Positions 29,259-64,000 of a DNA stretch of 64,000 nt are shown here, piece by piece (position 1 is the first letter of the stretch; every line of letters starts with the position of its first letter). The stretch lies in the IMG/VR virus record IMGVR_UViG_3300040786_000016. One strand, 5' to 3'. The position numbers and the translations under genes were made by a program. The notes under the pieces are model-generated. The model saw only the letters and a list, made by a program, of their open reading frames with translations. It was not told where the DNA came from and did no database searches. The DNA comes from a virus.

Positions 29259-29840
29259 ATGAAAATTAGATTAGATAAACAAAACATATTTTTCTGTTCA
29301 GATTTACATGAAAACCATGCTAATGTGATAAAGTATGATAATAGACCGTTTAAAGATGTTAGTCACATGAATGCTGAGTTAATCCGAAGATGGAATAATA
29401 AAGTAGGTGTTAATGATACGGTATTTTATTTAGGTGATTTAACATTTAGAAAAAATATTGAAGAAATTAAACTATTTGTAAACCAGTTAAATGGTAAGAT
29501 ACACTTCATATACGGTAATCACGATGATGATAGAATTATTACTAAATTAAATAGGTTTGAAACTATAAGTGATTATGTAACTTTATCAATTTTAGATAAG
29601 GATTCACCTAGAAAATATCAAGATATAATGTTATCTCATTATGCTATATTAAGTTGGGATAAGTCACATCATGGTTCATGGCATTTACATGGTCACTCAC
29701 ATCAAAGCCTTGTGAAACCAAATCCAGAATATTATAAACGTAAAGTTATTGATATTGGATGTAATGGTTGGGATTATGAGCCATTATCGTATAATGAAAA
29801 AAAAAATAATGTCTAATAAAGAAATTTCTGAACATCATTA
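29259..29840 (+). CDS. Calcineurin-like metallophosphoesterase
   Basis: SDLH, LGD, GNHD, HGHSH motifs. Confidence 0.9.
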
Positions 29841-29917
29841 AAAAAAAAGACCTGATAATTTGTATTATCGGGTCTTTTATTATATATTGCACAGTAAAAT
29901 AAAAACATATAAATATT

Positions 29918-32041: not shown

Positions 32042-33596
<1,555 letters not shown>

Positions 33597-33652
33597 ACAA
33601 TTAAATATAAATAATACTTCTGAGTGGAGTTATAAAACTCAAAACAATATAA

Positions 33653-34400
33653 TATGAAAAAAATTATCTTACTTTAACGGTTACTTTAACCACAATGTTC
33701 ACATCATGTACAACAGACGAAACGTCAATGGATGCAAAATGGAAACAACTAGCGTAAATTTCGCAGTCTCTGAACCAGCATCAACAGCTAAAACTATTGA
33801 TAGAAATTCTATCCCTTTATATGTTGATAACTTAACCATTAATGCGGCTAGTAGAGCGTTAAGTCCTTATGTAGCGACTGAAACCTTTGATTTTTAGGTG
33901 TTTTAAATGGATTAGCCCCAGCATTAACTTTAAACGGTGTTGCATTAGGTGTAAATACTTTTTCAGCAACAAGTACAAGTGCTAACAATAATAAAGTACA
34001 ATTATTAGCTTCTTCAAGTGCAATAAATTTAGATGTATTAAAAACTAACACACCTTATATTCCTTGTTTTCAATTAATGACCCATCACCTAATATTATTT
34101 ATGGTGTAAATGATGTTATTAATTTAGCTATGGATACAAATCATGGTAGGGTTTATCGTTATTTACAATTGATTCTGATGCAAATAAATACGTAGTTGTT
34201 ATTAAAGCAACAGTAGCTAACACTACAACTCAAACTATTACTATTAGACCAGAAACAAATAATAGAACAGCAACATTTGAATGGTCAAATCAATTAGCGG
34301 TAGATGGTGCTAAAGTAACTTATGTTATTTCTATCCTTGAAACAAGTGGTAATGTAACCCTTAAAACAATAACTAAAGAATTAGTAGTTAGAAAAGGTAA
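33653..34400 (+). CDS. Secreted or structural hypothetical protein
   Basis: MKKIILL signal-like start; split frames. Confidence 0.45.
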
Positions 34401-57810: not shown

Positions 57811-60800
57811 ATTTATAACGTTAAAATAAAAGTAGCTTATGAAAATAGATGATGTCATATTAAAATTACAAGAATATAAAAAAGAACATGGTAATATTGA
57901 AGTTCGTGTAGCTGGTAGTATAGAATATTGGGAACAACTTACAATGAAGTAGATGATTATACTTTAAGAGTTGATGAGAAAACAACTTTAAACCCAAAAA
58001 ACAAGAAGATACTAAATCGGTTGTTTTCTGTTTTGGTTACGATGTAAATATCTTATAATGTTTTTCACTTATATGAGGTTATTGTACTTTCAATAAACTC
58101 AATTAATTACTAATTAAAAGAAATACAAACTAATGGTTAAATTAAGTAATAAACAGCCATATATCATACACGATATTAACAATAGTGATTTTCGTGTAGT
58201 TGAATACGATGGTGTTTTTCAAATACAAAGAAAACAGATTAAAATTAAAATTCTTGGTATTTTATTTTGGAAAAAAAGAAGAAGTTGATTGGAAATGTGT
58301 TGATAAATATGGAAAGTGCGTTTATTCAATTGACTTACGGTTTGGTAATATGAATAATTATCACCAAATTAAAGATTTTAAAGATTTGGATAGTGCTTTA
58401 GAAAAATAAAAGTGATGATTAAAGGTTACGTTATCATTACTGTTAACGTTTGGTGACCTATAAATACCTATTATAGTAAGTAGTGGGTAATTAAAACAAA
58501 ATTATAATATACCAAGACAAATGATTAAAGATAAAACAATAACAAATTAAAGATGAATTAGTTAATAGCTCAAAACTGAAGTTAGTACTTGACCTTGTGA
58601 CATATGAGCCGAGATACTCTTTTAATGATGAGCCTGATAAAATGGGAAGATGGGCAAGGAAAGCTATTTACAGAAAATTACATATTGCTTGGATTTCAAG
58701 AATAGAAAGTAATGGGTTATTAAATTTATAGTAAATACTTATTTCCCACTAACTGGTAATGATTGTCCAAATAAACACGAAATATGTAGCACTTATGAAG
58801 ATGCAAAATGGTAGTTGAAACTGTGGACCCATTCTTGAGGGTTGTATCTGAACCGATTGTGTAAATTAAAGACTATCACAAAATAATAACAACCTAAGCA
58901 CAAATGTAACAGCTTTATTTTATACTATTATGAAAACGGATTATCAATTATCATTAGAAACGAAGAACAATTTGAAAAGGTGTCTAAATTCATTGAGAAA
59001 ATTATTGTTACGTTAAATGGTTCCACAAATGGCTGAATATGAAACAGCGTTAGTTGTATGGGCAAAAAAGAAAACAAATAGAAGTACTGGGTCATTTTGT
59101 GCTAAAAAGTCAAAGACAAGATGAAATTAGAACGGTTGAATTTAGTGAGTTATTCTCATAACTTGATTAAAACGACCACAAAATAAAAACTAAATAAATA
59201 ATATTATTATGGATTTAACAGGTTTAGAACACGAAATCAATGGAACTACGCCAATGCCGAAATGCAATGATTTATATACATTGTTAGGTGCAGTTAATGT
59301 TAAAGACTATAAATGTCCTAATTGTGGTAAATGGAATAATGACGACCAATATGAAGTGAATAAAGAGCAATATCCTAAATGTTTTAATGAAAGCAAAGGC
59401 TATAATGATGGATGGAACCCATTGGGATTGGGAAGAGGTTCATTGTTATGAAGATTGTGAAACAAAATATTGGTTTAGTAACGGTGCTTATTAATTGTAC
59501 ATAACGTTTTGTGTATATACGAGGTACACATTAACTGAATTTTTAAATTATAAACAAATACTTGTAGGTATCTTGTATATATGCTATTATAAGTTGATTA
59601 AATTTTATTATATGGAAACTTACGATTATGTGATTTATGTAAACAATTCAAAGTATGGTGAAGCTAATAACCACCAAGAACTTATTGAGTTAATTGAACA
59701 AATTAGAGTAGAACGTGGAGAAGGTGCTAAATACACCATAACTCTCCATAAAATTTAATTTGTTTATAACATTTGCAAATATTTATAGTGGCTGATTCAA
59801 AACTATTGCAACCAAATATTACTAATAATTAAATTAAAAATTATGTCACAAGAAAATACAAATGAGCCATTTAGCAAGACTGCTATTATGTGTAGTTCGG
59901 ATTATGAACTGCAAAAAATGGTTTCAGATAAAGAATTAGATAAAGTTTTTAACCTATTCTAATTTTGGCGGTTCTACAAAAGAGATGTGGTAAGATATGC
60001 TTTAATGAAAGTCGCCTGTGGTTATCATAACGGACATACTTCTCAATGTATCATTAATGAACTTGGTTTATGCAGTAAAGACTTAATTCTAACTAAAAAG
60101 GAAAAGAGTATTTGTACGAATCTTTCATATACGGCACTAATCATTAGCATTACGCACAACAGTTTCAAATATGTTTAGGTTTTATTTGGAACACAAAACT
60201 TGAATTATTCACAAAATTAAATTATAAAATATGAACTTGAATGAACCACAAAACCGCAATTTAATATAGGTGATGTTAGCAGTAGTTACATTGGTAAAGA
60301 ATGTTTTGGGTAGATAAAGTAACCTATAAAAGACATATGATGGTAGAAAATTAGGTAAATGTGTAGATGAAGGGGTACATTCTTTACATAAACTACCAAT
60401 AGTTTGGTTTGAAAAACCTTTTCTTGGATTTACTTGGCAGTATAAATCGGATGTTCGTCTGTAATTACTGCTAAGGTTGGGTGTATAAGAAGTTTTTTAT
60501 TTGTAAATTTCAAAGTTATACTTATCTTTGTAAAACTTTTTTTATACTTTATAAGTATGTATTATTTTGTTTTACCAATTAAAAAAATTAAATTATGAAA
60601 TGTAAAGTATGTAAAGAAGAGATTAACCTAACTGTTTTGGAATACCAAACGATACATGTTGGGGTTGTTTACAAGATGAACAAAAGAAAGAAGTTGTGGA
60701 TACAAATATTAAATTATCAAATGAAATTGCTTATTTAAATATAAGTAGTACGATTAATTATGACTCTATAAAATACAGTCTAAATAGATTATTAGAAGAA

Positions 60801-60983
60801 AGAAAATGGGTTGCTATTGCTATTTTAGACCATAGTGAAAATACATATTACAAAGAATTATATGATTACTTAAATGTGAAAATAAAGTTTTACTAGCACT
60901 GGCTTAGTCTTGCTGTTAACGTTTAGCAACTATATTTAGTGCCGACTTATGAAAACTAAATTTTAAACTTAAAATTAAACAAA

Positions 60984-61256
60984 ATGAATAAAAGTACAAA
61001 ACCAACTGAAAATTTAGCCGAATGTGGTAATAAGTCAAAACCACTGTTAGCAAATCGTTATTTTAAGGATTTTAAATATACTTTAAAAAGAAAATTTACT
61101 TCAAGAGATAGTGACTTTGGTTCAAAAGAAAGACCATTCCCTAAAGATTGGAAAGAAAATCCAATGATACAAATAGCGTTATCAGATTACAAAGAAACTT
61201 TGATTAAAAACAATTTTGACATTTTAGTTGATGAAAATTTAGATTTTGATATATAA
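60984..61256 (+). CDS. Cassette-encoded hypothetical protein; start codon lies inside the upstream attC-like loop
   Basis: ATG at 60984 is within hairpin 60914-61052. Confidence 0.7.
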   Translation: MNKSTKPTENLAECGNKSKPLLANRYFKDFKYTLKRKFTSRDSDFGSKERPFPKDWKENPMIQIALSDYKETLIKNNFDILVDENLDFDI

Positions 61257-61670
61257 TGTTTGCTAACGGTTACAGATATATTCAGTTGAATACAAACTTA
61301 AATTGAAATACAAATGATAAAATTTATAAAGAACTTATTTAAAATACACAGAAAATTAAATATATCTGTTGTTATGTGTAGTGTTTGTGGTTCAAAAATA
61401 TCACAACAAAAGAACAAATGAGAAGAACTGGTGGTAAATTACATAAAGGTAGAATGATGAGTTATGGATATTTTTGAATGTTCATACTTGTGATGATTGT
61501 GGTAATGTGTGGATGGTGAAAGAACAAGAAATTCTTAACATTACACATAACGGTTGCAAATATAAGTAGTTATTAACTAAATTTAATTAAAAGAAAAAAT
61601 TGATATTAACAACATTTATTTGGAAGTAATGAAATAATTACTTATATTTGTTGTTATAAAACGTTTATTT

Positions 61671-61890
61671 ATGAAAGCACACGAATTTATTGAAAAGAAC
61701 ATTGGTAATAAAGTGTATGTAACTGGTGATGGTGATTTAGCAATGTGTTATGAATTTAGGAAAATTATTTTCAACAAAACAGAATTAACTATTGTTAAAT
61801 TAACTAAAAGTGGTATGGCTTATTTGACTGATGATGAAAATAATTTTATTTAGTACCACCAATGAAATGTTCGTGAGGTTGGTTCTTAAA
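61671..61890 (+). CDS. Cassette-encoded hypothetical protein
   Basis: ORF bounded by GTTATAA (61653) and TTATAAC (61895). Confidence 0.6.
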
Positions 61891-62402
61891 TGTTTTATAA
61901 CGGGAAAGCTATACGATGGTTGGGAAACGTACAGACCAATTCATTGATTAAAGACTGATTAAAAAAGTACAAACTAAACTTTAAATTTAAAAATTAACCC
62001 AACTATTGTATAGCGAATGTTAGCAGTAGTTATAATACTAAACGAGATGTCAACACAAAGCACAAAATGTCTTAGATACTTTAAGAAACTCGGTATTAAT
62101 AGACCATATTGACGAGGAAGAATTAGAGATAATTGCTCAAAGCATAGTTGAAAATTTATGTATAGAACACGATAGAGCACCAAAGTGGGAATAATTACTG
62201 CTAACGTTTTGCCTATTTTCTTAGTGCGGACTTAAACAACGAAAAACTTAATTATTAAAAATATGAAAACGATGATACACAAAACCGCATTGAGCAAAAC
62301 GAGTGTTAGCACTAGTTGTGGCTTATGAAAATAATTCACTTTTATTTGTTTATTACGTTTATTATACGTTACTTTGCCATATAATATTAAAAGATAGAAA
62401 TT

Positions 62403-62890
62403 ATGTCAAATACAGAATTAATGAATTTATCAGTTGAACAATTGAGAGATTTGAACAAGAGAATTATTGAGGTTGTAAAATTAAACAACAAAGTGTTGCC
62501 TTTGTAAATAAAGAACAACTTTCAAAAGGAATGGTGGCTGAATATGTAGGTAATTCTACAAATATTCATTACAAAGAATTTGAGATTATCAAAATCAATC
62601 GAACTAAAGCCGAATGTAAATGTGTAGTAACTGGGAAATTGTGGACTATTCAAATTTGCAATTTAAAACCAACAGAAAAACAGTTGAATTATCACACTCA
62701 ATTATCAACAAAACAGAAAAACAACCTAACAATAAAAAGCAATGGTAAGAATAGAAATGCAATTAACAGAGGAAGAAGTTGCAATTATAGAACAGATTGC
62801 AAAAGAAGAAAGTCGCTCACGTAAAAGCAATGTGAAACTTACATGAGGAAGATGATTTCTGATTATAAACGTAAACGTAGCAATTAGCGC
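62403..62890 (+). CDS. Two-gene cassette: SH3-like small protein and a ribbon-helix-helix-like peptide
   Basis: MSNTELMNLS...GMVAEYVG...; MVRIEMQLTEEEVAIIEQIAKEESRSRK; internal TACTTTG promoter-like box. Confidence 0.45.
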
Positions 62891-63093
62891 TAACGTTTTG
62901 CAGCTACAACGGTCAAGCCTAACCGTAATAAAACTTCGGCTTGATAAGTTGTAACTGCTGTTACCACTACCGTTGATAGCAAACTTCCTCATACACCTTG
63001 TTATACACAGTGCGGATTATTATAAAGAAAATTTAATTAAAAAAATATAAAATTATAAAAAATTATTTATTAACAGATTTTAATACTGAACGA

Positions 63094-63430
63094 TGGAAAG
63101 GTATTAATTTAGAAAGTGTGAAAACGCAAGTAGAAAATTTGAATGAAAAAATTAATAAAATTGGATGTTTATTTGGTGAAATAGGAAATCCAGAAACGTT
63201 TGACATTTCATTATCAAGAGCATCACATTCAATTAAAAATTTAACAGTAGTAGATAGTAAAGTTTATGGTGATGTTGAATTTTTGAATAATGATAACGGA
63301 AAACAAGCAGACAATTTTATTAATAATATGGATTGTAGATTTGGTATAAAAGTACAGGAACATCAGAACAATATAAAGATGGTGAAATAGCTATTCATTC
63401 AATTTTTACTTGGGATGTAATCAACTCCTA
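63094..63430 (+). CDS. Cassette-encoded hypothetical protein
   Basis: ORF 63118-63390 plus flanks, between GTTATAC (63000) and GTATAAC (63478). Confidence 0.55.
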
Positions 63431-63556
63431 ATAATTTTATTGGATGAGCTTGATTAGAAGTAGAGATGTAGCATTGTGTATAACGGTTTGCATCTTGTGG
63501 AAGTTGCGGATGATTCAAGACTGAACATCACAAAAAAAAACCTTTAAATTAAAACT

Positions 63557-63760
63557 ATGAATACAAATAACGACCAAGCACCGCAATTACCACAAAATGC
63601 TGTTATAAGCCGTTTTGTTTCTGTAAAATTAAGCAGAGAAATAGTAGAAGGGATGATTTCTACTTATGAATTTCTTGAATGGCAAAACAAAGGCTCTGAT
63701 GATGCAAAGGAATGTAAAAAATACTAAACGCACTTAAGAAGTCTCTGCTTTAAATGGCTT
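63557..63760 (+). CDS. Cassette-encoded hypothetical protein; start inside the attC-like loop
   Basis: MNTNNDQAPQLPQNAVISRF; GTT core at 63602 encodes the Val. Confidence 0.6.
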
Positions 63761-64000
63761 ATAACGGAATGTTGCTTCGGCTTGCTGGCTTGTAGCGCAG
63801 GTTATATTCTCGGCTTTTTTTACTAACAAATTAAAATAAATAAAATGAAACTAGAACAAAAATTTGAAGTAGTAGAGCCAAATCACGTAAATTATCTTGA
63901 AGGTTTGGTAGAAGTTGCTGATGAATATGCAATTGATTTTGCAAAATGGTGTTTTAAAATTTTGATATGACAACTACAATTGACGAATTATTAGAAATCT

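Follow-up and report, generated by a model that had tools for sequence, protein, structure and literature searches.

A probable integron-like cassette array in a viral genome fragment and related arrays in Bacteroidota

Integrons are the textbook gene-capture system of bacteria and, to our knowledge, are known almost only from Proteobacteria, with IntI enzymes. The IMG/VR virus record IMGVR_UViG_3300040786_000016, of which a stretch of 64,000 nucleotides was analysed here (the window), raises the question of whether a system of this kind is also present in a phage. Towards its right end, single small open reading frames (ORFs) alternate with imperfect hairpins, and an initial annotation made from the letters alone had read this region as an integron-like cassette array. 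Our analysis bears out that reading. The region from 58054 to beyond 64000 is very probably a mobile cassette array of an integron-like system specific to Bacteroidota and their phages, because the structure of the sites, the co-varying cassette ends, the turnover of cassettes in related phages and the linkage of the sites to a recombinase all support it. The site family itself is large, barely described and common to the phages and hosts of the Bacteroidota.

Site structure and paired cassette ends

A covariance model, R1, was trained on 33 sites of the window and of cultured phages, five of them from the window. At E<0.01 the model reported 11 window sites, all on the + strand and all inside 58054-63614, with 6 of the 11 outside the training set, and the rest of the 64-kb window gave no match better than E=0.05. 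A covariance search, of the kind that the initial annotation had recommended, finds an array of same-strand sites. About 12 hairpins had been counted at first; three of these (58441, 60462 and 63752), spotted by eye, gain no support from R1. The array starts at about 58054 instead of 58441, and it runs past position 64000 and off the window. The RYYYAAC and GTTRRRY cores given earlier fit loosely, the invariant cores being TAAC and GTTA only. R1 represents the long-hairpin class only; on the Polaribacter phage P12002L it produced 2 weak matches and missed the short hairpins.

The features found in the sites are those of attC-type sites, namely an imperfect palindrome, AAC/GTT cores, an unpaired spacer, an inner helix and a variable loop. 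The inner arms quoted in the initial annotation were all in place (61271/61358, 61908/61998 and 63491/63581). Double (compensatory) changes were seen in 9 of the 15 pairs of the inner hairpin helix, which is maintained by such changes.

The two ends of a cassette pair with each other. The end pairs first quoted were located at 61371/61551, 62019/62205, 63000/63484 and 63602/63765, and the claim that the left core pairs with the start of its own cassette held for 10 of the 13 window units, in which the ends are self-pairing beyond the 4-nt core; none of 100,000 permutations equalled that count. When the whole 64 kb was scanned, GTTA...TAAC pairs with 13 of 14 complementary positions were confined to the last 2.7 kb. 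Further end pairs occur at 61653/61901 and 62305/62894, and weaker ones at 58175/58447, 60275/60475, 59586/59770 and 61046/61267. One position is non-Watson-Crick in all of the 13/14 end pairs: position 11, where a G of the 5' copy faces a T of the 3' copy. A second constant non-Watson-Crick position, C opposite A, was observed in the inner helix (GGCTTTG / CAAAACC; alignment A1 columns 35/145). The C/A mismatch of the inner helix and the G/T mismatch of the end helix favour opposite strands, and they may set the polarity of the site. The reconstructed junction of a circularised cassette, consisting of the 3' end, the upstream hairpin and the 5' end, forms one continuous hairpin, with a mean folding energy of -15.7 kcal/mol as compared to -11.9 kcal/mol in the array context.

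Hairpins and end pairings of this type could also act in the mRNA only, in processing, stability or the control of translation start, with the gene ends closing into a helix, the start codon in a structured leader and the cassette-like variation as a by-product. The constant mismatch of the end helix is in keeping with such a role, as it is G.T on the coding strand (G-U in RNA) and A.C on the other, and so are the start codons in loops, the reading frames that cross the 3' arm and core, and the slightly better folding of the coding strand than of its complement. However, no terminator-like site (a GC-rich stem and then a T run) was found in the array, terminators and sigma-70 promoters were not enriched there, and the sites matched no Rfam model. 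Of the counter-reading named in the initial annotation, hairpins serving only as terminators or processing sites, the terminator part is not borne out. Together with the breakpoints, the recombinase linkage and the bacterial arrays described below, these results lead us to regard a role in mRNA only as highly improbable; a secondary RNA role of the sites in phages may exist.

The paired ends could further be seen as the terminal inverted repeats of small transposons, one for each unit, inserted in the TA within GTTAAC. Inverted repeats do flank the units, and empty GTTAAC motifs are present at 58442 and 60915. This reading was rejected as extremely improbable: the outermost 6 nt of the repeats vary while the inner bases are constant, the opposite of transposon ends, no transposase is linked to the units, and the hairpins between them stay unexplained.

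Cassette turnover and recombinase linkage

In sensitive blastn searches, single cassettes or single hairpins of the window match the Flavobacterium phages FPSV-D15, filifjonk9-1 and mumin as well as huge uncultured phages, and the array layout of the window recurs in the error-free genomes of cultured Flavobacterium phages. Around half of the annotated array genes in those phages have their start codon in the hairpin loop and a reading frame that crosses the 3' arm and the GTTA core, the TAA of TAAC frequently serves as the stop codon, and several of the cassettes code for DNA methyltransferases. The window cassette 62305-62894 has a body 79% identical to that of a cassette with different neighbours in FPSV-D15, an unrelated phage. 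The similarity of the hairpins that flank the two is no higher than that of shuffled sequence, and the 6-mers at the ends differ between the two cassettes, yet are complementary to each other in each.

Nine related Baltic Sea Flavobacterium phages differ in array content and order, most at the 3' end, so that gene order, which the initial annotation had asked to be compared, is not fixed. All nine arrays finish at the same junction of TAAC with TACAATATTA, and then a small ribbon-helix-helix (RHH)-like gene follows. A gene of this kind was located directly 3' of the last cassette in both phage groups, at 4623-4820 of L002 (filifjonk9-1 gp003) and at 4875-5078 of L001 (FPSV-D15), the position that is occupied in other phages by a small recombinase.

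Between phage genomes that are 99.9% identical, three insertions or deletions of whole units have their breakpoints inside TAAC(GTT), on the left side of the hairpin. Homology ends within 6 nt of a TAAC core in 91 of 207 cases, as against 1.2% expected by chance; 74 more of the 207 ends lie ≤30 nt from the core, on the side where shared flanks lengthen the match, and 12 are at GTTA cores. Six different cassettes were found upstream of the unit formed by hairpin h4 and the methyltransferase cassette B6; a hairpin thus mostly moves together with its downstream gene. This places the crossover at the left core, TAAC on the coding strand and G/TT on the complementary strand, and not at the right core, where recombination at G/TT had originally been assumed.

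Units could also be shuffled by general homologous recombination between conserved hairpins that act as linkers, a route suggested earlier for promoter-stem-loop (PeSL) cassettes in T4-type phages. The blocks GGCTTTG / CAAAACC are common to the hairpins, related phages encode recombination functions, namely an exonuclease and a NinB-type protein, and a minority of junctions is at the GTTA core or within hairpins. The breakpoints, however, sit on 4-7 shared bases amid unrelated sequence and not in the longest shared blocks, and this route leaves the gene-specific complementary ends, the compensatory changes and the array-end recombinase unexplained; we consider it highly improbable. Breakpoints of near-identical phages on a 4-nt core also speak against hairpins that function in mRNA only.

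The recombinase came to light in bacterial genomes. A pattern derived from the sites matched more than 120 loci in Bacteroidota and Ignavibacteria genomes, where R1 shows same-strand arrays, and at least 10 genomes have orthologous tyrosine recombinases (359-376 aa) in fixed orientation at the array end. This enzyme reaches 211 bits on the NCBIfam XerA/integron-integrase model (cut-off 220), scores far below what the IntI models TIGR02249 and NF011946 require, and has VchIntIA as its nearest solved relative. In its bacterial form, the protein begins with an additional domain of about 85 aa. Nothing in the enzyme corresponds to the IntI-specific insert (about residues 210-245), the part with which classical integrases read flipped-out attC bases, and canonical IntI was absent from the five array-bearing genomes checked. 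Of 101 Flavobacterium genomes sampled, 56 encode the enzyme and 73 contain sites, and 52 of the 56 enzyme carriers also have sites.

In the Bacteroidota metagenome-assembled genome SSA2 (CP058707.1, our genome G005), one-strand sites detected by R1 extend over about 507 kb (3,475,000-3,982,500; loci L133, L260 and L261) at about 0.45/kb, and this array ends beside a 371-aa recombinase (L133 7784-8899, - strand). A length of about 507 kb would be far above that of the chromosomal integron arrays known to us.

The IntI-like recombinase that the initial annotation had recommended looking for was not found in the window; a tyrosine recombinase other than classical IntI was found beside the bacterial arrays and in some phages. 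With 5.6 kb that contain 11 sites supported by R1, and no recombinase anywhere in its 64 kb, the window holds what is classed as a cluster of attC sites lacking integron-integrases (CALIN), in an array cut by the window end. A recombinase homologue is also absent from the Muminvirus genome (filifjonk9-1). Among 120 IMG/VR loci with sites, 10 have a 267-aa homologue, directly 3' of the array on the gene strand in 9 of the 10. One temperate-type phage contig from IMG/VR (L143, 2848-4818) encodes two such enzymes: the 267-aa Xer-like one sits at the array end, and a 387-aa phage integrase of the ordinary kind is convergent with it.

Relative to the sites, genes were sense in 87 cases and antisense in 7 in viral contigs, and antisense in 85 and sense in 10, the classical layout, in bacterial genomes; that is, genes in phages and in bacteria face opposite ways. 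For sites acting in mRNA only this is a difficulty, since the mRNA of the bacterial arrays is the other strand, and the linkage of the sites to a tyrosine recombinase is a further one.

The array unit by unit and the window phage

All sites and cassettes of the window are on the + strand. The array begins with site 1 at 58054..58187 (R1 34.1 bits, E 8e-5), which has the degenerate cores TAAT and ATTA. It is followed by a cassette at 58175..58447 with the ends ATTAACAATAGTG / CATTACTGTTAAC, which pair at 8 of 9 positions beyond the core; the ORF of this cassette starts at 58133, inside the loop of site 1. A possible site at 58435..58593, the first hairpin of the initial annotation, has TAAC at 58444-58447 and GTTA at 58581-58584 and was recognised by eye, with no R1 match at E<1. 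The 925-nt stretch that follows (58581..59505) has unpaired ends (2 of 9 positions) and may contain decayed units.

The next site, 59500..59598 (R1 35.3 bits, E 5e-5), has TAAC at 59502-59505 and the right core ATTA at 59586, where a unit with a weaker end pair (59586/59770) begins according to the end-pairing analysis. The site at 59765..59897 (R1 27.4 bits, E 0.002) has TAAC at 59767-59770, then A, and the right core ATTA at 59885, and that at 60148..60287 (R1 43.3 bits, E 1e-6) has the left core TTAC and the right core GTTA at 60275. The cassette behind the latter, 60275..60475, has the ends GTTAGCAGTAGTT / AATTACTGCTAAG, in which 9 of 9 positions pair beyond the core and the 3' core is mutated to TAAG. 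In the site at 60915..61059 (R1 34.5 bits) the loop holds the ATG of an ORF at 60984-61256, and the 3' half of this site (60972-61050) was found in several contexts among short-read contigs of the same sample. Its cassette, 61046..61267, has the ends GTTAGCAAATCGT / AATGTTTGCTAAC, with 7 of 9 positions paired.

Next come the site at 61262..61383 (arms ACAGATATATT / AATATATCTGT; R1 51.3 bits, E 2e-8, outside the training set) and the cassette at 61371..61551 (ends GTTATGTGTAGTG / CATTACACATAAC), which was found by the end-pair scan and contains a small CxxC...CxxC ORF split by an assembly frameshift. The site at 61546..61665 (R1 37.6 bits, in the training set) precedes the cassette at 61653..61901 (ends GTTATAAAACGTT / AATGTTTTATAAC; ORF 61671-61853), also from the end-pair scan, as is the cassette at 62019..62205 (ends GTTAGCAGTAGTT / AATTACTGCTAAC) behind the site at 61896..62031 (R1 77.4 bits). 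The site at 62200..62317 (R1 62.3 bits) leads into the cassette at 62305..62894 (ends GTTAGCACTAGTT / AATTAGCGCTAAC), which is the one related to FPSV-D15. At 62889..63012, R1 (34.9 bits for 62889-62974) closes the site at an inner GTTA (62960), short of the paired right core at 63000, where a cassette with the ends GTTATACACAGTG / CATTGTGTATAAC begins (63000..63484); its ORF, 63118-63390, has a weak phrog_207 match. The site at 63479..63614 (R1 100.5 bits) has 78% identity to a site of phage filifjonk9-1 and holds in its loop the ATG of the ORF 63557-63727. The last complete cassette, 63602..63765 (ends GTTATAAGCCGTT / AATGGCTTATAAC), again comes from the end-pair scan, and a short possible site at 63752..63814, with TAAC at 63762-63765 and GTTA at 63801, was recognised by eye only.

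Along the array, sites left of about 61.2 kb have lower R1 scores and mutated cores (TAAT, ATTA, TTAC and TAAG), and the highest R1 scores belong to three sites near the right end. In five short-read contigs other sequence is joined on at 63801, and the breaks in several contigs coincide with cores. One low-depth short-read contig links 62921 to 63801 via 38 other letters; suggestively, this skip fits a variant that lacks two cassettes, with both ends at GTTA cores. Outside the array, a lone weak R1 match (E 0.05) was seen at 29760-29874, directly after a phosphoesterase gene, and a 50-nt hairpin, GTTATATCATACGT...ATGTATGATATAAC, at 2481-2530 among tRNA genes; either may be a stray or decayed site.

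The window is AT-rich (about 27% GC), with nearly all genes on the + strand. Its 26 tRNA genes form several clusters between 1648 and 23237, without exception on the + strand, and it also contains pieces of phage genes for a nicotinamide phosphoribosyltransferase, a phosphoesterase, a T5 A1-like DNA transfer protein and a helicase. Since the A1-like protein is nearest to those of Cellulophaga and Flavobacterium phages (44% identity), the window belongs to a large phage with a Flavobacteriia-type host. Megablast against phages returned no close relatives, exact 36-mers of the window were absent from viral and metagenome contigs, an exact protein look-up was also without match, and Pfam and PHROGs searches gave no convincing match that would indicate cassette functions.

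Frameshifts break the window genes over the whole length, with the nicotinamide phosphoribosyltransferase gene in at least two pieces (e.g. 32595-33657). Alternative genetic codes were ruled out as a cause of the short ORFs, as none of them yields long ORFs. Short-read contigs from the same ice metagenome add 1-5 bases, mostly A, at dozens of places in the window, and the frameshifts are therefore errors of an error-prone assembly. No substitutions are listed at the site cores with respect to the short-read contigs.

Proposed mechanism and comparison with known systems

Several observations weigh against a mobile integron-like array. An identical 14-nt end pair, GTTATAAAACGTTT / AAATGTTTTATAAC, encloses three unrelated ORFs, namely in the window cassette 61653-61901, at 3212-3502 of L003 and in L009 (snork9-1), the latter two being Baltic Sea phages. 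Cassettes that move as fixed units do not explain this; it looks as if ORFs had been exchanged within a fixed frame. Some junctions are at the GTTA core, and the same hairpin can stand before different bodies, two in one case. The 64-kb window contains no recombinase homologue, and the linked enzyme lacks the IntI insert, so that its use of a folded single strand would be an extrapolation. P12002L_attC1, which belongs to the same site family as shown below, was the one site that failed to be recombined by IntI1 (PMC9892861 and supplement). With no close relative of the window phage found, cassette turnover is seen in other phages only, and no circular cassette was seen in the data from the same sample, which are assembled contigs only.

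On the coding strand, a unit consists of G, a 5' arm, an AT-rich loop (often with the start codon inside) and a 3' arm, followed by GTTA, 6 variable nt and GT, the gene body, and AT, the complementary 6 nt and TAAC. In the mechanism that we propose for the mobile array, the two ends and the hairpin would join in the free circle as one long imperfect attC-like hairpin. Its 13-bp helix, which includes the constant G.T pair, would be separated by an asymmetric unpaired spacer from a second helix that carries the loop. The cut within the TAAC of the folded strand would be made by a tyrosine recombinase with kinship to IntI and XerA; cassettes would be excised by it and reinserted for the most part at the array's 3' end, beyond the window. 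Insertion there would explain the decayed sites on the left and the intact ones on the right, and the polarity of the array points to the 3' end, outside the window, as the entry point of new cassettes. The enzyme could be the host's, which about half of the sampled Flavobacterium genomes encode, or a 267-aa phage copy past the window end.

On balance we lean, with some reserve, towards a wider proposition. The sites would represent an undescribed integron class common to Bacteroidota and their phages, with an Xer/IntI-like recombinase that lacks the IntI insert and chromosomal arrays of up to about 500 kb. The phages would carry their accessory and anti-defence genes (e.g. DNA methyltransferases) as inverted cassettes, the site would double as the translation start region, and one pool of sites would be read on opposite strands. 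If true, the integron principle would also hold for a major phylum and for its phages, lytic as well as temperate, by way of a different enzyme branch, and the hyper-variable early regions of these phages, with their methyltransferases and many unknown small genes, would have a concrete mechanism. The origin of cassettes could be approached from two new angles, the first being that end pairs are gene-specific, yet identical pairs surround unrelated genes, and the second the inverted orientation of genes in phage and host, which bears on how cassettes are made. Annotation is affected as well: start codons lie inside sites, the TAA of TAAC acts as a stop codon, and finders that require canonical IntI would report no complete integron here.

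Published precedent for this site family amounts to one CALIN, that of the Polaribacter phage P12002L. Qi et al. 2023 reported 17 CALINs among 10,705 phage genomes and handled them as ordinary attC sites (PMC9892861). P12002L_attC1 (TGCTAAC...GTTAGGC; PMC9892861 supplement) is a short-hairpin member of the family found in the window, and the cassettes on both sides of it encode methyltransferases and have paired ends. That account describes neither the breadth of the family nor the inverted genes, the long end pairs and the linked Xer/IntI-like enzyme. Bacteroidota are listed among the phyla with detected integrons in a review (PMC8618304), and full-text literature searches found no description of this site family.

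Xer-type recombinases (XerA, XerC and XerD) resemble the array-linked enzyme, which comes near the cut-off of the XerA/integron-integrase model. The substrate of Xer enzymes is one double-stranded, dif-like site, whereas the system described here has arrays of hairpin sites and, in bacteria, an enzyme with the additional N-terminal domain.

The likeness to classical integrons, such as the Vibrio chromosomal arrays with their repeats of about 125 nt, goes further. Both systems have imperfect palindromes (here about 100-135 nt) in which AAC/GTT cores are combined with an inner helix, a spacer that stays unpaired and a variable loop, a single gene per unit, and unit ends that pair mutually and not with their neighbours in the array. 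In both, same-strand arrays adjoin a tyrosine recombinase, with VchIntIA as the nearest solved relative in the present case, and turnover peaks at the enzyme-proximal end of the array. The differences lie in the enzyme, which has no IntI-specific insert and stays under the cut-offs of the IntI family, in the paired ends, which are 13-14 nt long and combine a gene-specific 6-mer with one constant G.T pair, and in the phage genes, which lie on the opposite strand, with the site upstream of the gene and often giving it its start codon.

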